In this document: in pieces, positions 40,545 through 55,386 of the stretch
How positions within the stretch are numbered: the first letter of the stretch is position 1
Layout: every line of letters starts with the position of its first letter
NCBI GenBank assembly: GCA_963789955.1
Contig: CAWBMV010000034.1
Location: forward strand, 1,088,001-1,152,000
Direction: 5' to 3'
Source: an uncultured Candidatus Rokubacteria bacterium
GTDB taxonomy: Bacteria; Methylomirabilota; Methylomirabilia; Rokubacteriales; CSP1-6
DNA length: 64,000 bases
Program-made: the position numbers and the translations under genes
Notes under the pieces: generated by a model
Databases searched by the model: none
What the model saw: the letters and a program-made list of their open reading frames with translations, nothing else
Told to the model about the DNA's origin: nothing

Positions 40545-41977
40545 ATGCGGCGGACCAAGATCGTCTGCACGATCGGTCCGGCGAGCAGCAGCACCGAGGA
40601 GCTCGATCGCCTCGTGGCGGCCGGCCTCGACGTGGCGCGCCTCAATTTCTCCCACGGCACGCACGACGAGCACGCGGACGTCATTCGTCGCATCCGCGAC
40701 GGCGAGGCGCGCTGGGGCCGACCGGTCGCCATCCTTCAAGATCTGCAGGGCCCGAAGATCCGGCTCGGGACGTTCGGCCCCGGCGGCGGCGCCCGCGTCG
40801 ACCTCGAGCCCGGCCGGCCGTTCACCCTCTGCGCGCATCCGGTGGAGGGGACCGTCGAGCGGGCGTCGATCACGCATCCCGAATACCTGCGAGACCTGCG
40901 CGCCGGCGACGAGATCTGGATGGACGACGGCATGATCCAGCTGCGGGTCGAGACGACCTCGCCGGACGAAGTCCGCTGTCGCGTGGTGGTCGGCGGGCGC
41001 ATCAGCGATCACAAGGGACTCTCGCTGCCGCGCGTGAAGCTGCCGGTGTCCTGCCTGACCGACAAGGACCGCGAAGACCTGCGCTTCGGCCTGCGCCACG
41101 GGGTCGACTACGTGGCGGTCTCGTTCGTGCGCTCGGCCGACGACATCGACGAGGTTCGAGCGTTCCTGCGCGCCGAGGCCGCCGATCTGCCGATCGTCGC
41201 CAAGCTCGAGCGCCACGAGATCGTCGCCAACCTGCCCGGCATCCTGAGCAAGGTCGACGCGGTCATGGTCGCGCGCGGCGACCTCGGCGTCGACGTGCCG
41301 ATCGAGGACGTGCCCCACATCCAGAAGGAGATCATTCGCCAGGCGCGCGGCGCGAAGGTGCCGGTGATCGTCGCCACCCAGATGCTGGAGTCGATGGTCA
41401 CGCATCTGCAGACCGACCCGCGCGGAGGTCTCGGACGTCTCGACCGCGATCTTCGACGGCGCCGACGCCGTCATGCTGTCGGCCGAGACGGCCACCGGAC
41501 GCTACCCGCACGAGGCCGTCGCGGTGATGGCGCGGGTGGCCGAGCGCGCCGACGGCGCGGTGCTGATCCTCGACCGCGAGCGGCGCCGGCGCTCCGGGCT
41601 CGAACTTTCCCGAAGCGATCTCTGACGCGGCCGCGACGGCGGCGCACGTCCTGAGCGCCCGCGCGGTCGTGGCGTTCACCGAGTCCGGCTTCTCGGCCCG
41701 GCTCATCTCGCAGGCTCGGCCCAGCGTGCCGATCCTCGCGCTGACGCCGTTCGTCGAGGTCCAGCGCCGGCTGGCGCTCTCGTGGGGCGTCACCTCGCGG
41801 CTCATCCGAAAGGTCGGGACGACCGACGAGATGATCGAAGAGGTCGAAGCCAACCTGCTCGGCGACGGCGTGGTGCGTCCCAACGACGTCATCGTCATCA
41901 TCTCCGGCTCGCCGATGTGGGTGCGCGGAACGACGAATCTGTTGAAGCTCCACCGGGTTGGCGAGCGCCGGACGTGA
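40545..41977 (+). CDS. pyk: Pyruvate kinase, frameshifted at ~41410 and ~41590
   Basis: [51 protein letters not shown]. Confidence 0.95.
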
Positions 41978-44900
41978 AGTTCGGGCTCAGGCGCCGATTC
42001 TCCCGCCGCCTCCTCCCGGCGCTCTTCGGTCTCCTGATGCTCTGGGCGATCGCGGGTGTCGTGGTCGCGGAGCGTGTCGTCGCGCGGTACGACACCGCGG
42101 TGAGCGCGACCCTGACGTCAGTCCGCGAGCTGGTGGCACTGGCCCTGGAAGACGTGCGCCGCGAGGCCTGGCTCCTCGCGCACGATCCCGCCGTCTCGGA
42201 CGGGATGGCGGAGAGCGACTGGGCCACGCTCGTGCGTGGCGCGCTGCCGAAGATCCTGGCGCTCCAGCAGGACCGGATCGCGGACCTCCTGCTGATCATG
42301 GACGCGAACGGCCTTCCGCTCATCCAGATGCCGCCCGCCAAGCAGAGCATCGCGCCCGCGGTCCTCCGGCCGACGGAGCCCTTCACGCAGGTGGCCCTCG
42401 TGGGCGAGCGACCCTACGTGCTGGGCATCGCGCCGACACCAGCGGGGATGGTCGTCGTCGGCCGGAGCTTCGATGCGCTCGAAGAATCGATCGCGACCCT
42501 TCCGTCCCGTCCGGCACTCGTGGCGGTCTCGAACGACCGCGCCCTCGGCGCGGTGTTGCCGGGCGCGCCGACGGCGGGCTGGACGGATGCGCTGCGGACG
42601 GGGCAGATCGCGATCGGCGGTGAGACGTGGCTCGCCCGACCGCTCCGCGAGGGCGGCGACCGCTTCTGGACCTTGCTGTCGGCGCGAGAGCACCGCGGCC
42701 CGGCGCGACGTCTCTGGATCTGGTGGGCCGTCTCGCTCGCCGCCGCGCTGGCCGGCGCCGTGGGTATCGCCGCCGTTTCCGCGTCGGACCGCGGCAAGGG
42801 CCGGCAGGAACGAAAGCCGAAAAGCCGGCCGTTGAACCGCGCGCGCCCTCGACCGGAGCCGGCTCCCGCGGCCGCCGAGCCCTTGCCCGCTGCCGCCGAG
42901 GCATCCGACATGCGCCGGAGCCGTGAGCTCGAGGTGCTGCATGCGGTCGTCGTGGCGACCGGGAGCGGCGACGACCTCGTGCTCACCGCCGAGCGGACCC
43001 TGGAGGTCGTGTGTGACGTCGCCGGGATCCACTTCGGCGGCGTGTTCCGCTTCGACCGCGCCACGCAGACCCTCGGCCTCATCGCCCATCGCGGGCTCGA
43101 GCCCGAGGACGTCGACCGGCTGCGTCTTCGTTCCCTCGACCGGAGCCACGTCGGCGAGGTGATCCGCACCGGGCGCGTGATCATCACCGACCTGACGGCC
43201 TCCCGCGTCTTGACGCCCGACGTCGTCGAGCGGGTGCGGGTCGGCGGCTACCACACGCAGCTCGCAATACCGATTCCGGTCAACGGCGAGACGTGGGGCG
43301 TGATGGCGCTCATCTCGAAAGAGGCGCGGACGTTTCAGGCCGACGAGCTCACCTTGCTCGAAGCGGTGGCGCACCAGGTGGGGCAGGTGGTGGCGCGGGC
43401 CTCGCTGCTGGCGGAGAGCCGCGAGAAGAGCCGTCGCCTCGAGGCGCTCGGCCGGCTCGCCCAGACGCTCACGGCCACCTTGTCGCCGGACGAGGTGTTT
43501 CAGCGGGTCGTCGACGCCGTGGTCGAGCTCTTCGGGTCGAGCGCCGCCCAGCTCTGGCTCGTGGACGAAGGCGGCCAGCATGTCGCGCTCCACGCCGTCG
43601 CCGGAGCCGATGCCTCCACCGGAGGCTTCGAGCGCGTGCGAGTCGGCGAGGGGCTCATCGGCACCGTCGTGGCGACGCGCGAGCCGCTGGCGACGGCCGA
43701 CGCGCTCACCGATCCGCGGACCCGCAACGTCGAGCCGACGCGCGCCGTCGGCGTGATCGGCGTGGGCATCGTGCCGCTCATGATCGATCAGAAGGTTCTT
43801 GGAGTCTTGACGATCGGCATGCGCGAGCGGCACGAGCCCACCGCCGAGGAGATGCAGCTCCTCGGCTCGCTGGCCTCGCATGCGGCGAACGCGATCAACA
43901 ACGCCCAGCTCTATCGCGAGGCGACGCGGCAGGCCCAGCGGATGAGCGCGCTGGCCGACCTCGGGCGGCTCCTCTCCGAGACGCTCGACCTCGACCTGGT
44001 CGGGCAGCGCATCGCCGACAGCGTCCGCCGGCTGCTGGGCGCGCACTCGTCGAGTCTCTACCGGATCGATCCGGACACGGAAGCGCTGGTGGCCTTCGTC
44101 GTCACCGGGGAGGACGGAGTCGCGATCCCCCGCGACACGGTGTTCCCGCGAGGCCACGCCCTCGTGGGCGTCGTCGTGCGAGAGCGAGCGCCCGTCGCCA
44201 CCGAGAATCTGCTGGCGGATCCCCGCTTCGTCTTCACCGACGAGGCCAGAGCGGCGATCGAGCGCGCGGGACACCGATCCGTGCTGGCGGTCCCGCTGCG
44301 TATCGGCGAGCGCGTCATCGGCGCCCTCGGCCTCGGCGACCGGGTCGGGCGCCGGTTCGATGACGACGAGATCCGCCTGGTCGAGGCGTTCGCCGACCAG
44401 GCGGCGCTCGCGCTCGAGAACGCGCGGCTCTACACGGAGTCGACGCGGCGCCGTCTCGAGGCCGAAGAGCTGGCGCGGCTGGCGCAGTCCCTGACGGAGA
44501 GCCTCGACCCGCGCGACGTCGGCCAGCGGATCGTCGAAAGCGTGCTCGGACTCTTCCAGGTTCGTTCGTCGGTGCTCCGGCTGCTGCGGGCCGACGGCTC
44601 GCTGATCACGCTCGCGGGCGGCGGCCGTTTCCGCGACGTCTCGCAGGTCGTCCCCGTGCTACCGGCGGGAGTCGGGCCGTCCGGGATCGCGATCGTCGAG
44701 GGACGCGCCGTGGCGTCGGTCGACGTCTTCAACGATCCCGCGATCGTCCTGAGCGACGACGTCGCCGCGGCGATGCGGCGCACCGGCGCCGGCGCGGTCG
44801 TTGCCGTTCCGCTGCGGGCCAAGGGCCGGATCATCGGCACCCTGGCGCTGGGCGACGTGGCGGGCCGAGTGTTCTCGGCCGGCGAGGTGGCGCTGCTCCA

Positions 44901-46619
44901 GGCGTTCGGCGACCAGGCGGCGCTCGCGCTCGAGAACGCGCAGCTCTATGAAGAGAACCGCCGCCAGGTCGAGGAGCTGTCGGTGCTCCTCGAGCTGTCG
45001 CGGGCGGTCACCGGTCAGCTCGATCGCGCGACCTTGCTCGAGGCCATCCGCGTCCAGGCCGGCCGCATCCTCGACGCCACCAACATGGCGATCGTGCTGC
45101 GCGACGAAGAGCGTGGCGATCTCGAAGTCGTCCTGCGTGTGGTGGACGGCGTTCCCGACATGCGCATGCCGCTCCGGTATCCCTCCCGCACGGTCGGGCT
45201 CATGTCGGCCGTGCTCGAGACCGGCAAGGCGCTGCGGACCGATGACTACCACGCCGAGTGCGCGCGGCGCGGGCTCGCGCCGGTGGAGACGTTCCCCGGC
45301 TCGCGGTCCTGGCTCGGCGTGCCGATGACCACCGGGGACATGGTGATCGGCGTGCTGACCCTGCGGAGCCAGACGCGGACCTTCGGCGAGGCCGACGAGC
45401 GGTTGCTGTCGAGCATCGGTCATCTCGCCGCACTCGCGCTGCGCAGCGCCCGGCTCTTCGAGGAGCGCACCCGGGCATACAGCGAGCTGGCCTCGGCGCA
45501 GGACCAGCTCGTGCGGACCGAGAAGCTGCGCGCGCTCGGCGAGATGGCCTCGGGGTCGCGCACGACTTCAACAATCTGCTCGCGTCGATCCTGGGCCGGG
45601 CGCAGCTCACCCTGCAGCGCTTGCAAGACCCGCAGCTCCGCAAGTGGCTCCAGGTCATCGAGCGCTCCGCGCTCGACGGGGCCCAGACCGTTCGCCGGCT
45701 GCAAGAGTTCACCCGCACCCGCCGCGACCAGCCGTTCGTGGCGGTCGACCTGAACGAGGTCGTCCGCGGCGCGCTCGAGATCACCCAGTCGCGCTGGCGC
45801 GAGGAAACGCGAAGCCGAGGCGTGGACGTCGAGGCGCAGACGTCGTTCGGGACCTTGCCGATGGTGGCGGGCGATCCGGCCGAGCTCCGCGAGGCGATGA
45901 CCAACCTGATCCTCAACGCCGTGGACGCGATGCCGACCGGCGGCACCCTGACCCTGACCACGCGCGTCGAGAACAATCTGGTCGTCGTCACGGTCGCGGA
46001 CACCGGTATCGGGATTCCCGAAGCGATCCGCGGCAAGATCTTCGATCCGTTCTTCACCACGAAGGGGCCGCAGGGCACCGGGCTCGGGCTCTCGATGACG
46101 TACGGCATCCTCTCGCGCCACGGCGCGCGGATCACGGTCGACAGCCAGGAGGGGCGCGGCACCACGTTTCGTCTGACGTTCGCGCCGGGCGCGGTCCCGG
46201 ACGTCGAGGTGAGCCCTCCGGCCGAGTCGGCGCCGCTCGGAGTATCGCTCCGGTGCCTGGTGATCGACGACGAGGCGGAGGTCGGCCGTGTCCTCGGCGA
46301 CGTGCTCCAGACGAGTGGGCACCGCGTCGTCGTGCTCGGCGACGGCGCCGAGGCGATCGCGCAGTTCCGTGCCGAGGCCTTCGATATCGTGTTCACCGAT
46401 CTCGCGATGCCCCGCGTCTCGGGCTGGCAGGTGGCCCAGGCCGTGAAGGAGATGGCGCCGGCGGTGCCGGTCGTTCTCGTCACGGGCTTCGGTGTCGAGC
46501 TGACGGCCGAGGAGCGTCAGGTCCACGGCGTGGACATGGTGCTGGTGAAGCCGCTGAAGATCGCCGACGTCCTCGGCGCCGTGGCGCGTGCCGCCCGCTG
46601 GCGTGCCGAGCGAAGCTGA
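41974..46619 (+). CDS. Hybrid sensor histidine kinase: 2 TM, 5 GAF, HisKA, HATPase, receiver; one indel at ~45555
   Basis: Repeated QAALALENARLY GAF ends; EKLRALGEMA / AHDFNNLL; FDPFFTTKG..GTGLGLS; TDLAMP receiver motif. Confidence 0.9.
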
Positions 46620-46635
46620 GAGGAGGACGACCTTG

Positions 46636-47424
46636 ATGGACTTCAAGTTCCTGACCCTCGAGCGCCATGACGGGGTCGCGACGATCACGCTCAACCGGCC
46701 CGACGCGTTCAACGCGCTGAGCCTCGGCCTCGGCCGCGACCTCTTCCACGCCGCGCTCGAGGTCGACGAGGACCCGGCCGTGCGCTGCGTCGTCGTCACC
46801 GGCGCGGGCCGGGCATTTTGCGCCGGCGGCGACGTCAAAGACTTCGTCGACAATCTCGAGCGCATCGGCGTGCTGGTGAAGGAGCTCACGACCTATCTGC
46901 ACGGCGCGGTGTCCCGGTTCTGCCGGACCGACAAGCCGATCATCATGGCGGTCAACGGCGTCGCGGCGGGCGGCGGCCTGAGCTTCGCGCTCTCCGGCGA
47001 CCTGGTCGTCGCCGCTGAGTCGGCGCGGTTCACGATGGCCTACTCGAAGATCGCGGCCACCCCCGACGGCTCGTCGTCGTACTTTCTGCCGCGCCTCGTC
47101 GGGCTGCGCCGCGCGATGGAGCTCTACTTCACCAACCGCGTGCTCTCGGCGCGCGAAGCACTCGAGTGGGGGCTGGTGACGCGCGTGGTGCCCGACGCAG
47201 AGCTCGCGTCGACGGTCGCCGCGATGGCGCGCGAGCTGGCCCAGGGCCCGACGAAGGCGTTCGGCGGCGCCAAGCGCCTCTTCCACCAGTCGACGTGGGA
47301 GAGCCTGGAGACGCAGATGGAGCTCGAGGCGCAGGCGATCGCGGCGAGCGGCCATACCGAGGACTTCCGGGCCGGCGTCACGGCGTTCGCGCGCAAACAG
47401 ACGCCGACGTTCCGCGGACGGTGA
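46636..47424 (+). CDS. Enoyl-CoA hydratase/isomerase family protein
   Basis: LNRPDAFNAL, FCAGGDV, NGVAAGGG. Confidence 0.92.
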   Translation: MDFKFLTLERHDGVATITLNRPDAFNALSLGLGRDLFHAALEVDEDPAVRCVVVTGAGRAFCAGGDVKDFVDNLERIGVLVKELTTYLHGAVSRFCRTDKPIIMAVNGVAAGGGLSFALSGDLVVAAESARFTMAYSKIAATPDGSSSYFLPRLVGLRRAMELYFTNRVLSAREALEWGLVTRVVPDAELASTVAAMARELAQGPTKAFGGAKRLFHQSTWESLETQMELEAQAIAASGHTEDFRAGVTAFARKQTPTFRGR

Positions 47425-47484
47425 GCGGCGCTGGGCCGGAACGTCCTCGGGTACAATTGGTGACGAGTCGCTCAGGAGGCCTCG

Positions 47485-48261
47485 ATGAACGACAGCGCTA
47501 CGCGGGTATCCGGAACCAGAGCCCGGTTCTTCTACCGGCCGGGCTGATCGTCCTGCGCCAAGACGAAGGAGCTCCTCACGTCTTGGGGGGTCGAGTTCGA
47601 CCCGGTCGATACGCAAGCTCACCCGGAAGGCTACGAGGAACTGGCGCGCCTGGGAATCCAGCGCGTCCCGGCGCTGACCATCGGGGATCGCGCCGCGCAC
47701 GGATGGAACCCGCCGGCGTATGCGGAGCTCCTCGGGATCCCGTACTCGGAGACGATCAAGCTGGCTCCGGCCGTGCTCGCCCAGCGGCTCGACATCGTGC
47801 TCGACACGAACCAGCAGCTGATGGGTATCGTCCCCGAGCGGCACCTGAACTGGCGACCGCCCGAGCGCAATCGGACGCTCCGCAACCTCGGCTACCACGT
47901 CTTCCGGCTCTCGCTCGCGTTCGTGGACGGAATGGATCTCGGTGAGTTCCCCGAATCGTGGCTGCTCGACGAGGCGCCCGACGATCTCTCGGACGGTCCG
48001 GCCATCGCGCGCTACGGCGCGCTCGTGCGTGGACGTATCGCCGGCTGGTTCGAAGGCGCGTCCCCGTCCGAGTTCTCGCGCGTGATCAGGGTGTACTACG
48101 GCCCGCAGTCCGGCCACGACCTGCTCGAGCGCACGACGTGGCACGCCGCGCAGCACCTGCGCCAGCTCTACGCCCTCTCCGAACGGCTCGACATCAAGCC
48201 GCCGGTGCCGATGCCGAGCGAAGCCTTCAAGGGCCTGCCGCTTCCTGCCGCGCTCTGGTGA
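47485..48261 (+). CDS. Glutaredoxin-like (USSC, probable Sec21) fused to a DinB-family domain
   Basis: AGGAGG SD, ATG 47485, FFYRPG-TGA(47545)-SSCAKTKELL..GIQRVPALTIG, in frame with ORF 47773..48261 (GYHVF, WHAAQHLRQ). Confidence 0.82.
47558..47586 (+). promoter_or_regulatory. SECIS-like hairpin
   Basis: CCAAGACG/CGUCUUGG stem starting 10 nt after the UGA; inner AGG-AGCU-CCU apex. Confidence 0.6.
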
Positions 48262-49029
48262 CACGGGTCGACTACGATCGGCGCCTCTATCGGACGTATC
48301 GCGCCGGTCGTAGCCTCTCCCCCGACACCGGCCGGCTCTGGATGGACGCGCTGGCCGGCCACGTCGGTCGCGGCCACTCTGATCTGACCATTCTCGACCT
48401 CGGCGCCGGCACCGGGCGCTTCTCGGTGCTGCTGGCCGATGCGTTCGCGTCGCAGGTCGTCGCCGTCGAGCCGTCGGAGAAGATGCGCGCCGAGGCCGAG
48501 CGCGGCAGCCCGCACGCTCGAGTCGTCTATCGGGACGGCACGGCCGGCGCGATCCCGGCCGCAAACGGAGCGTTCGACTTCGCGCTCCTGTCCATGGTGA
48601 TCCATCACGTTCCAGATCTCGATGGCTGCGCGCGCGAGCTCCACCGGGTCATCAAGCCCGCGGGGCTCGTGTTCATCCGAAACACCTTCAGCGGCCGACT
48701 CGCGAGCATTCGCCACTACGAGTTCTTTCCGTCGGCGCGCGCCATCGACGAGGCGCGTCTCCCCACGGTCGAGCAGATCCGCGATGCGTTCGAGGCGAGG
48801 GGATTCGCGACGGCGGCGCTCGACACGCTCGAGCAAGAGATCGACCCGAGCCTCGCCGCCCACTACGACCGCCTGAAACGCCGAGCCCTCTCCTCGTTCG
48901 AGCTGATGACCGACGCCGAATTCGAGCACGGCCTCGCTCGCCTGCGAACTCGCCGCCTCCCTCGAAACCACCCCCATACCAGTCCTAGAAAAAATCGACC
49001 TCCTCGTCCTCCGCCGCCCCAACAACTAA
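48258..49029 (+). CDS. Class I SAM-dependent methyltransferase (probable indel near 48946)
   Basis: ILDLGAGTGRF, VEPSEKM, FDFALLSMVIHH; GTGA overlap with the upstream stop. Confidence 0.85.
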
Positions 49030-49155
49030 CCCCGTTCCCACCACAAGAACCGGAGTCCTTCCCAGCACCGAAGCGCACCGTGCCGATGCCAGGCACACCG
49101 CGAGCCCGGCTGCCGTGACGTGTGCGTCTGACTGCATACGCCTAGCAAAACCGGG

Positions 49156-49312
49156 GGCGCGGGAGGCAGGCGGTGGGTGGGGGGCATTGCGACTCGTTCC
49201 CTCCAAGGGTCAGCGGACGAACAGCGCCGAGATGGAGCCCAGCCGCTACGGGAAATGCGCCCGCGTGCCGCGTGGTCGCAATGCCCCCCACCCACCGCCT
49301 GCCTCCCGCGCC
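49156..49312. repeat. Perfect 38-bp inverted repeat with 81-bp spacer (MITE/REP-like)
   Basis: GGCGCGGGAGGCAGGCGGTGGGTGGGGGGCATTGCGAC at 49156-49193 and its exact reverse complement at 49275-49312. Confidence 0.85.
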
Positions 49313-49322
49313 TCCGCCTCCG

Positions 49323-50282
49323 CTAGTCCTCTTCCACCCAAGCCGCCGTCAACCGACGCGCCAGCCCGCGATGTCCTTGGAAGAAATACGCGAGCATGAC
49401 GACGCTGGCGAGGAGGTTGCCGACGAACACGGTCCAGCCGGCGATCTCGTCGAGCACCCACTTCGCCGCGATCAGGACGCCGCCGATGAAGAACACCTCG
49501 AACGCGGTGAAGAAGATCACCAGCGCGAAGACGAAGAGCGGCTGACGCTCGGCGCCCGCGATCAAGAGGGCGCCGACGATGCCGAAGAGCGCGAAGGCGA
49601 TCCCGTGCACGACGGTGTAGGTGACGAGCGCGGTCACCGGATCGGATTGGCGGAGGAGCCCCATGCCGAGGAGCGTCGGCGTGCGCAGCGGCTCGCCCTG
49701 AATCCAGTCGATCGCCAGAAACCAGAGCGCCACCACCGCCGCGCCGAGCAGGCCCGCCACGATGCCCTCGCGGAGGACGGCGCCCCACGAACCGATCAAC
49801 GTGCGCGGCAGCGCCCGGTGCGCGCGGAAGAAGTACCAGAGCATCGCGATCGACGCGAGCAGGTTGCCGATGAGGATCGCCCACCAGACCAGCGCGCCGA
49901 GCATCGACTTGCCGAGCGCGCCGACCACGCCGAAGACGAAGACTTCGAAGCTGGCGAACAGGATGACGAACGCGAGAAAGAGCGCAGGCTCGCGCTCGCT
50001 GACCGCCATGAGACTCGCCGCGACGACCCCGAACGCGACGAACGCCAGCCCGTGGATGATCGTGTAGCCGAGCACGTTGCCGAACGTCGGCCTGAGGCCG
50101 GCCGGGTCGGTGACCCCGTGGAACACCGCGGCACCCAGGAGGCCCGGCGTGAGGAACGGCTGGCCGCGGGCGATATCGAACACGAGGAACCAGACGGCGA
50201 CGACCGCCGCGCCGATCAAGCCGGCCACGATGCCTTCCCTGAGGATCGACCGCTCGGCGGACGCCATCTGGGTGCGCATCAT
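49323..50282 (-). CDS. Membrane protein made of two tandem homologous halves
   Basis: LREGIVAGL.GAAVVA.WFL and GNLLAS each occur twice. Confidence 0.8.
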   Translation of the reverse strand: MMRTQMASAERSILREGIVAGLIGAAVVAVWFLVFDIARGQPFLTPGLLGAAVFHGVTDPAGLRPTFGNVLGYTIIHGLAFVAFGVVAASLMAVSEREPALFLAFVILFASFEVFVFGVVGALGKSMLGALVWWAILIGNLLASIAMLWYFFRAHRALPRTLIGSWGAVLREGIVAGLLGAAVVALWFLAIDWIQGEPLRTPTLLGMGLLRQSDPVTALVTYTVVHGIAFALFGIVGALLIAGAERQPLFVFALVIFFTAFEVFFIGGVLIAAKWVLDEIAGWTVFVGNLLASVVMLAYFFQGHRGLARRLTAAWVEED

Positions 50283-50292
50283 TGTATGCCTT

Positions 50293-50943
50293 CTACGGTG
50301 ACTCGGCGTCGCGCGCGAATCGCACGCCGTAGTCGGAGTAGCGCAGGTGGGGTGGCAGGGAGGAGCGGTGGCCGACCGGGCTCCACGGATCGGCATGCCG
50401 CCAGGCTCCGCCTCGGCTGACTCGCCGCGTCCCGGTGGCCGCGCCTCGCGGATTCCGGTCCGGCGATTCGACGTAGTAGCTCTCGCCGAACCAGTCGGCG
50501 CACCATTCGTGGCACACGCCGGAGAGGTCGGTGAGCCCGAGCGCGTTGCGCGGCGTTTCGCCGACGCGCGGCGGCCGCTTGAACATCATGGTCGGTCGGT
50601 CGTCGCCCCAGGGGTAGCGCGCCTCGTCGAGGCCGCCGCGGGCCGCTTTCTCCCACTCGGCCTCGGTCGGCAATCGCGCTCCCGACCACTCCGCGAACGC
50701 CACGGCCTCGGCCCACGAGAGGCCGACGACGGGCTGACCTGGATCGGCGAACCCCGGCTCGAGCCAGAATGGCGGCACCGGGGCGCCGGTCGCCTTCGCG
50801 TAGGCGGCGAAGTCCGCGTTGGTCGCGGGCGTGCGCGCGATCATGAACGCGTCGACCCAGACGAGATGCCGCGGGCGCTCGCATGGGTGGCCGGAGGCCC
50901 AGCCCATGGCGAATCGTCCGGCCGGAACGCTCACGAAGTCCAC
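50293..50943 (-). CDS. FGE-sulfatase (SUMF1/EgtB-C-terminal-like) domain protein
   Basis: VPAGRFAMG, RLPTEAEWEKAARGG, YPWG, RGGAW, GVRFA. Confidence 0.88.
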   Translation of the reverse strand: MDFVSVPAGRFAMGWASGHPCERPRHLVWVDAFMIARTPATNADFAAYAKATGAPVPPFWLEPGFADPGQPVVGLSWAEAVAFAEWSGARLPTEAEWEKAARGGLDEARYPWGDDRPTMMFKRPPRVGETPRNALGLTDLSGVCHEWCADWFGESYYVESPDRNPRGAATGTRRVSRGGAWRHADPWSPVGHRSSLPPHLRYSDYGVRFARDAESP

Positions 50944-53157: not shown

Positions 53158-54614
53158 GTGAGCGGTACGACCGTCGCCGATGTCGTCGTTGACGGCCTCA
53201 GACGCGCCGGAGCGCCGCGTTTGTTTGCCGTCGCACGCGGCGCGTCCCGCTTCGGCACTTCTCGATGCGGCGCGCGCGCGCGGGCTTCCCGTCACGATCG
53301 CGTCACACGAGACCGGTGCGTTCGTCATGGCCGCGGTCACCGGCGACCTCGTCGACGCGCCGGGTGCCGTACTCATCGGCGAGGACGGCTCCGCATCGGC
53401 GCACGCACACAACGTGCCGGACGACGCGCCGCTGATCTTGTTGACCAGCGGCCATCCATCGAACGTACCCCGCTGCAAGGAGACACTTCGGATCGAGGCG
53501 GTGTCCGCCGCGCATCGCATCGCCCACGCGGTCAGGCTCGCCATGACCGAGCCGCGAGGTCCGGTCCATCTCGCCATCTCACGCCGGGGTCGCGAGCGCA
53601 GCGGCGGTGCCGCTGGCCACGTCGTGCCGTCCCGATCCGCTGCCGTATCCCGATGGCGTGGCGCTGGACCGGCGGCTCGCGAGCTCTCCGCGGCCTCGCG
53701 GCCGCTCCTGCTCGCGGGACTTCACTGTCGCTCGGCCGACGCGGTGCAGTGGCTCCGGGCATTCGTCGAGGCGCTGCCCGCTCCACTCCTGACGACGCCA
53801 CGCGCGAAGGGCGCGCTGCCCGATCCGCACCCGCTGACGCTCGGCGTGCTCGGCGTGGGCGGTGTAGCGGAGCGCCTGCTGAGCCGCGCGGATCTCGTCG
53901 TCGCCCTCGGGCTCGACACGCACGAGGCGAACGCCTTGCCGAAGGCCTGCTGGTCGAACGCTCCGATGCTCGTCTTCGGTCCGGCCGCGGTGCCCGATGG
54001 CCGGCTGCCGGCGGTTCACGTGATCGGTGACGTGAGCGCCATCATCGAGGAGCTCGCGATACGCCTGCGCGACAAGCCTCGGGCCGACTGGGACGTTGCC
54101 GAGGTCGACCGTCTACGGCGTGAGGGGGCCGCTCGGGGCGGCGACGGGCTCGTCGCGCGCGTCGTTCGCCTCGCCCGTGAAGCGACGCCGGCGGGAACGA
54201 TCGCGACGGTCGACGCGGGCCACTATCGAGAGTCTGTCGCCACTGCGTGGCACGCGGTCGCCCCGCGCGAATTCCTCGCGTCGAACGATCTCGCGCAAAG
54301 CTTCGCGCTGCCCGCCGCGATCGCCGCGCACCTCGTGCATCCAGATCGCTACGTCGTATGCTTCACCGGCGCCAACGAGGTGGGAACGGCCGCGACCGAG
54401 CTCGAGACCGTGGCGCGGCTCGCGGCGCGCATCGTGATCGTCGTTCACGAGACCGACGGCACGGGCGCCGCCGCGATGCGGCTGGCCGACGAGCGTTGGT
54501 CTTTCTGTATCCGCCGTCGCCAGCGAGGCGGCGTTTTCTCAGGCGTTCGGTCGTGCGCTCAACGGCGCCGGAGGATCGCTGATCGTCGTCACCGCGGACG
54601 CCGTCGAGCGCTAG
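53158..54614 (+). CDS. Thiamine-diphosphate enzyme (acetolactate synthase-like) homolog, degenerate and frameshifted
   Basis: TVADVVVDGL, HETGAFVMA, PRGPVHL, KGALPDPHPL, FALPAAIAA. Confidence 0.7.
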
Positions 54615-54735
54615 ACCGCAACGATCGTGGGATCGATGCGCGCCACGACGTAGCCGGCGACTGCGCCGGCGCCGAAGGACGCGGCGAAGATGGTGTGGCT
54701 CCCTGGCGCGCGATTCCAGCAGGTATAATGACGCC

Positions 54736-55386
54736 ATGCCGATCCTGAACCCGCGCGACCAGGAAGCCGTCCGCAAGGAGTTCGAACGCATTGCCGGACC
54801 CGTGAAGCTCATCGTCTTCTCGCAGGAGCTGGCGGCGGCCGAGCTCTGCCAGCAGAACGAGGCGCTGGTCCGCGAGGTCGCCGAGCTGTCCGACCAGATC
54901 ACGGTCGAGGTGCTCAATCTCGCCATCGATCGCGAGCGGGCGGAGGCCTATGGGGTGGATCAGGTGCCGGCCATCGTCGTCGAGGGCAGCCGCGACTGGG
55001 GCATCCGTTTCTACGGAGTCCCGCTCGGCTACGAGTTCAGCAACTTGATCGACTCGATCATCGTCGCGTCGACCGGCCAGCCGGGACTGTCCGAAGAGAC
55101 GCTCGCCTCGCTGCAGGCGCTCGCGAGCGATGTCGACATCAAGGTCTTCTCGACACCGACCTGACCCCACTGCCCCCGGGCCGTGCGCCTGGCGCAGCAC
55201 ATGTCGGTGGCCTCGGACCGGGTGCGCTCGACCGTGATCGAAGCGACCGAGTTTCCCGAGCTGTCGCGGGCCTACCAGGTGATGGGCGTCCCCAAGGTCG
55301 TGATCAACGATCGCGTCCAGTTCGAAGGCGCCCTGCCGGAGCACGACTTCCTGAGCGCGGTGCTCCAGGCGGTGGAGACCCCCTGA
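54736..55386 (+). CDS. Protein-disulfide oxidoreductase (AhpF-NTD/PDO type, two Trx folds) with in-frame TGA (probable Sec143, UPHC)
   Basis: RFYGVPLGYEFSNLI..IKVFSTPT-TGA(55162)-PHCPRAVRLA..YQVMGVPKVVIN..FEGALPE, all in one frame. Confidence 0.85.

Follow-up and report, generated by a model that had tools for sequence, protein, structure and literature searches.

A predicted selenoprotein family joining a redoxin to a DinB-like domain in Candidatus Rokubacteria

Glutaredoxins that carry selenocysteine (Sec) are single-domain proteins of about 80–120 residues, and the NrdH, YruB and UXX-star redoxins are likewise described by single-domain models; NrdH is reduced by thioredoxin reductase. EgtB, OvoA and SenA need a DinB and an FGE-sulfatase domain in one chain. 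The other members of the DinB/YfiT superfamily considered here (BstA/YfiT, mycothiol S-transferase and DR0053) share a four-helix bundle with an H...HxxxH triad, which in BstA has the metal-site pattern H67/H160/H164 in the available text of PMC5815605. The available text on the STL enzymes (PMC10950700) presents them as metal-dependent thiol transferases and gives thiol transfer to the DinB domain in the two-domain members.

The window, a stretch of 64,000 nucleotides from an uncultured Candidatus Rokubacteria bacterium, contains a gene that resembles each of these systems in part (Table 1). Its product is like cGrx1 in having a thioredoxin fold, a U-x-x-C motif at the same place and a conserved proline, but it has a DinB domain joined to the redoxin, and gshB is not detectable in its main hosts. 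With BstA/YfiT, mycothiol S-transferase and DR0053 it shares the bundle and the triad at 13–18% identity, and it differs from them in being fused to a Sec redoxin. A DinB-type domain is common to it and EgtB/OvoA/SenA (Z 10–11), whereas Pfam detected no FGE domain in the window protein, which sets it apart from that group. The same architecture and motifs are found in uncharacterised Glutaredoxin+DinB_2 proteins, mostly of Pseudomonadota, that are known from automatic clusters (53–115 members in the ESM Atlas, score 0.97) and that have Cys in place of Sec and lack the hairpin; neither a curated NCBIfam model nor a paper was found for them. The sequence-only reading had called the architecture unusual, which holds for the Sec form and not for the two-domain layout, already present in databases in these Cys-type proteins.

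The reading had also recognised no characterised selenoprotein family in the fusion, and the lists that we searched agree. The word DinB occurs nowhere in the 119-family table and main text of a 2026 review of prokaryotic selenoproteins (PMC13188914), and a term search of the main text and four supplements of deep-Sep (PMC12013277) did not return it. The same review credits Deng et al. 2026 with the prediction of 63 selenoprotein genes, new candidates included, from one Methylomirabilota MAG. Among the papers listed by full-text searches, we found none linking selenoproteins with DinB or Rokubacteria; Deng et al. 2026 and Haft and Tolstoy 2025 could list the family.

Table 1. Coordinates in the window of the redoxin-DinB gene, its elements and its neighbours
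Feature	Position	Strand	Basis or remark
Enoyl-CoA hydratase/isomerase gene, upstream	46588..47424	+	in 61/78 genome loci
TACAAT, -10-like hexamer	47452..47457	+	sequence; -35 partner not found
Shine-Dalgarno AGGAGG	47474..47479	+	ATG 5 nt further on
Full CDS, 258 aa, UGA read as Sec	47485..48261	+	ATG 47485, closing TGA 48259-48261
Glutaredoxin/NrdH-like domain, Pfam PF00462, residues 16-69	47530..47691	+	39.3 bits vs cut-off 22.9
In-frame UGA, predicted Sec21, first residue of U-S-S-C	47545..47547	+	codon comparison across related loci
Cys24, presumed resolving cysteine	47554..47556	+	Cys in 78/78 loci and 54/56 covering representatives
SECIS-like hairpin, 12-pair register, 5-nt loop AGCUC (47570-47574)	47558..47586	+	conservation, covariation
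DinB_2 four-helix bundle, residues 102-228	47788..48168	+	Pfam 31.9 vs cut-off 24.8
His triad H138, H220, H224	47896-47898, 48142-48144, 48154-48156	+	conservation
Class I SAM methyltransferase gene	48258..49118	+	GTG overlaps stop (GTGA, 48258-48261)
Membrane protein gene, no NCBIfam family	49323-50396	-	in 31/78 loci
FGE-sulfatase-domain gene, stand-alone, weakly EgtB/SenA-like	50293-50943	-	in 43/78 loci

Reading frame and Sec/Cys interchange at the UGA site

The hidden fusion frame described in the sequence-only reading was confirmed. The ribosome-binding motif is present and the start codon stands where it had put it, the region around the UGA reads RFFYRPG-U-SSC, and the frame runs unbroken from the redoxin through the DinB domain to the closing TGA; its one slip was the first base of TACAAT, given as 47453 instead of 47452. 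The table-11 ORF track opens this frame only at 47773, past the UGA, and of the 120 database proteins that match the window protein best, nearly all likewise begin 3' of the TGA. Their starts are scattered (lengths 162–234 aa), as is usual for truncated entries. An in-frame start lies 6–35 codons 5' of the UGA site in 77 of 78 loci, accompanied by a Shine-Dalgarno-like motif in 56. A -10-like hexamer was found upstream in 20/78 loci, compared with 1/78 for an in-gene control, and TACAAT itself in 14 close relatives; a consensus scan of the window gene detected neither a full sigma-70 promoter nor a terminator. The whole gene is covered by a 1086-nt contig from an RNA library, for which DNA carry-over is possible, with no TGA difference among the rows listed.

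We compared the aligned codon at the UGA site in two sets of loci. The genome set (132 related genome loci, of which the best 80 were used) has TGA in 77 loci and TGC in one, and two loci do not reach the site. In the metagenome set (the best 80 of 557 loci, whose query alignment consisted mostly of Cys-type proteins), it is TGA in 31, TGC in 32 and TGT in 17. Pooled, 158 of the 160 loci cover the site, with 108 TGA and 50 Cys codons, and TAA, TAG and TGG are absent from the internal site in all 158. The alignment of TGA with Cys codons supports the earlier proposal of a selenoprotein. As TGA occurs in 77 of 78 covering relatives, it is not a read error. As their true stop codon, the 76 full-length loci use TGA (43), TAG (26) and TAA (7), indicating that TGA serves as an ordinary stop elsewhere in these genes. 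The codons 5' of the UGA vary synonymously while the peptide F/Y-Y-R-P-G stays fixed, and the TGA is flanked by conserved peptide sequence on either side. When the 150 best of 2398 cluster representatives are considered, the site is covered by 55, and CxxC stands there in 53.

To follow the Sec/Cys state, we used a tree of 116 rows, thinned from 154 distinct proteins and based on the residues 3' of the hairpin. On this tree, which was made by a quick method and has several long branches, 7 changes of state are needed and at least 4 are forced by well-supported branches; judged from it, the state has changed at least 4 times and probably 7 times. Taking the codon comparison together with the hairpin and machinery described below, we consider it almost certain that the window gene is a real selenoprotein gene.

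Downstream hairpin and selenocysteine machinery

The 8-bp stem that had been reported 10 nt after the UGA is present exactly there, with the arms CCAAGACG/CGTCTTGG at 47558-47565/47579-47586. The loop begins 22 nt past the UGA and has G at its second position, and the hairpin thereby fits the bSECIS constraints stated in the available text of PMC13188914, namely a loop of 3–9 nt, a G within the first two nucleotides of the loop and a distance of 16–37 nt from the UGA. Folded alone, the window hairpin has z-scores of -2.65 (66 nt), -1.51 (53 nt) and -0.27 (101 nt). By itself it would thus be only modestly better than chance in GC-rich DNA, and its weight comes from conservation.

In the 12-pair register, 89% of cells are paired across 69 distinct sequences with 30 two-sided changes, a covariation signal that is inflated by the relatedness of these sequences. 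The score of this register, which was picked after inspection of the alignment, was reached by 0 of 500 shuffles and lies above those of all slid registers. A stronger test is given by the independent divergent set, in which at least 6 of the 7 core pairs are formed in 25 of 30 distinct TGA sequences vs 0 of 44 distinct Cys sequences (kin among them not being independent), while the peptides encoded at the hairpin are nearly alike in the two types of gene. When all 243 codon positions of the window gene are compared, 10 of 12 pairs in the register are reached at the Sec codon alone. Together these results support the SECIS assignment.

Several other treatments of the RNA were discarded or returned little. 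The minimum-energy register of the window, with a bulged upper stem, has covariation not above that of shuffles (138–413 of 500), and RNAalifold recovered only 4 pairs of the 12-pair register. A loose energy-based bSECIS rule was rejected as evidence, as it passes 77/77 internal TGAs but also 32/43 terminal ones. The Rfam scan gave no match to a SECIS model and two sub-threshold miRNA matches on an inverted repeat. A REP/MITE-like intergenic inverted repeat lies at 49142-49326 of the window, with 52-nt arms that are 90% complementary and 81 nt apart.

The Sec machinery sought in the host genome is all there: the tRNA-Sec, selA and selB genes lie together on one contig (C1) and selD on another (C6), with the selA, selB and selD profiles all over cut-off. 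The assembled selD is broken by a one-base frameshift, likely an assembly error, since in 20 of 20 relatives the gene is uninterrupted and contains one TGA. At G000:C6:164350-165326, SelD itself shows an in-frame TGA (CAG-U-ASK) together with a perfect 8-bp hairpin. Four genes of the window also look frameshifted (pyruvate kinase at 40545-41977, a GAF histidine kinase at 41782-46619, the methyltransferase at 48946 and a TPP enzyme at 53180-54748), which is consistent with indel errors in the assembly. Nearly all sampled genomes of the phylum have selA (137 of 151; among 13 other host MAGs, 10 have it and 3 lack it), so its co-occurrence with the family there is not discriminating. Among metagenome loci with at least 300 nt of downstream flank, selA/selB lie within 4 kb of 6/28 TGA-type vs 0/44 Cys-type loci. 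The six are L109, L122, L131, L132, L141 and L164, and in L132 the start of selA is 13 nt past the redoxin-DinB stop. No sel gene is beside any of the 69 TGA-type genome loci with flank.

Two other genes with in-frame TGA codons were noticed. The window gene at 54736-55383 (+) encodes a TIGR02187 protein disulfide oxidoreductase, over cut-off when read through; it has an in-frame TGA at 55162 (STPT-U-PHC) and a downstream hairpin whose loop begins with G, and by these features is a second selenoprotein gene, of a known family. Elsewhere, the gene directly after trxB encodes a 78-aa redoxin with the motif VG-U-GPC and is accompanied by a hairpin (L168:1501-1734 / G000:C6:491586-492800); this redoxin scores below all NCBIfam cut-offs.

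Domains, distribution and neighbourhood

The Grx-like fold of the N-terminal part is borne out by the PF00462 match, a modelled thioredoxin fold, the U-x-x-C motif and the RVP proline P62 (47668-47670), a proline being present in 130 of 130 covering representatives. The best PDB sequence match is glutaredoxin 7c10 ('Dithiol cGrx1', E 7e-17), which we take to be the Sec-glutaredoxin of Clostridium oremlandii, in keeping with reference titles in the selenoprotein review. The model of the N-domain matches 3zij (Z 13.1, rmsd 1.3 over 72), NrdH 1h75 (Z 11.6) and cGrx1 7c10 (Z 11.5, rmsd 1.6 over 72). By NCBIfam score (June 2026) it is closest to the YruB, NrdH and UXX-star redoxins (E 2e-8 to 9e-6), yet falls well short of the cut-offs of TIGR02194 (34.6 vs 88.55 bits), TIGR02196 (32.3 vs 85.75) and NF041212 (25.9 vs 66). 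Its HGWNP segment resembles the SGFRP loop of NrdH.

The C-terminal part is, as had been read from the sequence, a DinB-like domain with a His triad. AlphaFold2 modelled residues 13-258 from a 68-sequence alignment with a pLDDT of 91.7 and a pTM of 0.83. The best fold match of the C-domain is 6iz2 (Z 15.8, rmsd 2.2 over 143), followed by YfiT 1rxq (Z 12.9), mycothiol S-transferase 8f5v (Z 12.4) and BstA 5wk0 (Z 10.0). The triad is invariant in one alignment (A1) and nearly or fully so in another (A3), and divergent members further share R130, R216, W219, Q223, R226, Q227 and a C-terminal LPxP. At identities as low as about 30–40%, the His, Arg, Trp and Gln residues of the pocket still show little or no variation. 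H138, H220 and H224 have the same H...HxxxH spacing as H67/H160/H164 of BstA in the available text of PMC5815605, and by this analogy the three His residues would form a divalent-metal site.

Copies of the DinB domain that lack the redoxin were fetched as a chosen subset of partial matches (n=11); 9 have no His triad and 2 retain it, which is consistent with coupled domains. In the nine (L169-L173, L176-L179) the frames are open, and 8 of 9 lie just downstream of an enoyl-CoA hydratase gene. The triad-less copies are possibly pseudo-enzymes. Their location, mostly at one syntenic site, suggests that the redoxin-less copies probably arose in few events and may go back to a single one. Two divergent members from other families of the class (L180, L181) keep the TGA, with TNC or FTC after it, and have an altered His region. 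A representative fused to PrpD (P0193) is a singleton.

We found the family in 100 of 151 sampled genomes of the phylum, a sample that includes genomes flagged unpublished and overlaps the collection of related loci; apart from the host genome itself, these are 97 of 109 genomes of the host order and 2 of 41 in other groups. The 97 listed matches that start at model positions 1–3 contain exactly one TGA each. The closest relatives (75–84% identity) belong to Ca. Rokubacteria, Methylomirabilota and Binatia, and 120 further genomes from the phylum of genome G162 gave no family match.

The neighbourhood is informative mainly about lineage. The overlap of the methyltransferase start with the redoxin-DinB stop, from which translational coupling had been proposed, is real in the window, but is not a family feature: the methyltransferase is present in only 12 of 78 loci, mostly those of the closest relatives, and so says little about function. 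Its frame runs to 49118 as assembled, and one RNA-library contig has a one-base indel near 48946, by which the true stop would probably be at 49027-49029. In L071 the gene seemed to be fused to the methyltransferase, but this proved to be a frameshift into out-of-frame sequence and was set aside. The enoyl-CoA hydratase gene, the FGE gene and an aminotransferase gene (40/78 loci) are lineage synteny, and in the divergent set the enoyl-CoA hydratase did not emerge among the shared neighbours. We also rejected a split EgtB/OvoA/SenA-like cluster composed of DinB, FGE, methyltransferase and aminotransferase genes, which lie on opposite strands and occur together in the host lineage only; the FGE gene scores 94 vs 360 and 85 vs 420 bits against EgtB/OvoA/SenA-type cut-offs. 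Clustering of neighbours across 98 divergent loci returned no shared functional partner beyond small clade-level sets. In one clade that adjoins selA/selB, several members are flanked by a glutathione S-transferase gene (PRK10357) and mnmA.

Proposed chemistry and competing readings

The gshB, bshC and mshC genes were each found in 0 of 41 related genomes, in which the positive controls were detected, and GCS2 in 4 of 41; this absence of the glutathione, bacillithiol and mycothiol pathways is drawn from four marker families in incomplete MAGs, two of them flagged unpublished. Neither bacillithiol nor mycothiol synthesis is thus indicated for the host by its relatives. The host genome has no egtB over cut-off, and trxB is present. 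A classic small-thiol transferase would be left without its usual substrate in these bacteria. The earlier suggestion of a low-molecular-weight-thiol transferase accordingly keeps the fold and the triad in its favour and remains an extrapolation from the superfamily, with the missing thiol genes against it. The near-core occurrence of a redoxin-transferase in hosts without the usual thiols suggests that a tethered selenol is the nucleophile and thioredoxin reductase the reductant.

On this proposal, SelB and Sec-tRNA would read the hairpin past codon 21 and insert Sec to give the 258-aa protein, in which the NrdH/cGrx1-like redoxin (U21-S-S-C24) and the DinB bundle would together make up a self-contained redox enzyme. 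With invariant Arg, Trp and Gln residues around it, the DinB site would bind and polarise a small anionic substrate, whether an electrophile, a disulfide or a sulfur adduct. Attack on the substrate would then come from the selenolate of the protein itself, replacing the free small thiol of single-domain DinB transferases. Cys24 would resolve the adduct to form a selenenylsulfide, and thioredoxin reductase with NADPH would re-reduce it. Against this mechanism, Cys-type homologues are common in Pseudomonadota, which usually make glutathione, and no conserved neighbour points to a substrate. We judge the chance that the tethered-selenol, thioredoxin reductase-recycled mechanism is right to be about even.

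The best of the competing readings accepts the selenoprotein and makes its DinB domain a classic S-transferase that conjugates a diffusible thiol (CoA, cysteine, another thiol, or glutathione in Cys-type hosts) to electrophiles, while the fused redoxin keeps the thiol or the enzyme reduced in the manner of mycoredoxin or bacilliredoxin. In its favour, the fold and the His triad are shared with BstA, YfiT and mycothiol S-transferase, metal-dependent thiol transfer is assigned to the DinB domain in the available STL text (PMC10950700), and PRK10357 lies divergently upstream in 5 TGA-type metagenome loci. Identity to the characterised STL transferases is only 13–17%, however, and the want of gshB, bshC and mshC where the gene is near-core, together with that of egtB in the host, argues against such a role, which we think unlikely though worth keeping in view.

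A role in metal, metalloid or selenium handling, in which UxxC and the His triad would bind, reduce or pass on an ion or a selenium species, for example to SelD, appears improbable. It would suit the six TGA-type loci adjoining selA/selB, which fall on two tree branches, the presence of mnmA near 4 TGA-type loci and faint ArsC-related NCBIfam matches (E 0.02–0.1). Against this, the TGA-type genome loci with flank have no sel neighbour, and selenoprotein genes often cluster with the Sec machinery whatever their function. Metal-resistance genes are absent from the recurrent neighbours, and the adjoining methyltransferase scores far under the ArsM cut-off.

We give slightly less credence to a non-catalytic or sensing DinB module that docks the redoxin on one partner protein and so makes a dedicated disulfide reductase. 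The closeness of the N-domain to NrdH, YruB and cGrx1 redoxins and the persistence of triad-less DinB-only copies as open frames would fit this picture, but near-invariance of the pocket is what is expected of a small-ligand active site, and no partner gene is conserved nearby.

That there is no Sec at all, the TGA being a true stop, a sequencing error or a Trp/Cys read-through with the DinB protein starting downstream, is very improbable, for the truncated database entries, the indel errors elsewhere in the assembly and the permissiveness of the loose SECIS rule are outweighed by the scatter of the database starts, the exchange with Cys codons only at a site where other stops and TGG never appear in genes that end normally in TGA, the peptide conserved on either side, and a fixed-register hairpin that Cys genes lack.

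The window protein therefore very probably represents a new selenoprotein family, made by standard recoding and having an uncharacterised redoxin-DinB architecture. The recoding mechanism is ordinary and new selenoprotein families of the thioredoxin fold are reported regularly, which limits the surprise. The family is nevertheless near-core in Rokubacteria and recurs in divergent clades, yet is cut short in public protein databases, and the natural Cys-type homologues make its function testable without Sec expression. If true, this would be the first link found between Sec and the DinB/STL superfamily. More tentatively, the protein may be the first selenoenzyme of the DinB superfamily, with a tethered selenol in place of a free low-molecular-weight thiol: a self-contained, metal-assisted selenium-dependent transferase or reductase with a core redox or detoxification role in an abundant soil lineage without glutathione, bacillithiol or mycothiol, which would have converged on the layout of glutathione transferases (redoxin plus helical bundle) through an unrelated helical domain. 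As its hosts seem to lack the three canonical small thiols, the protein would offer a handle on the thiol chemistry of these abundant uncultured soil bacteria.
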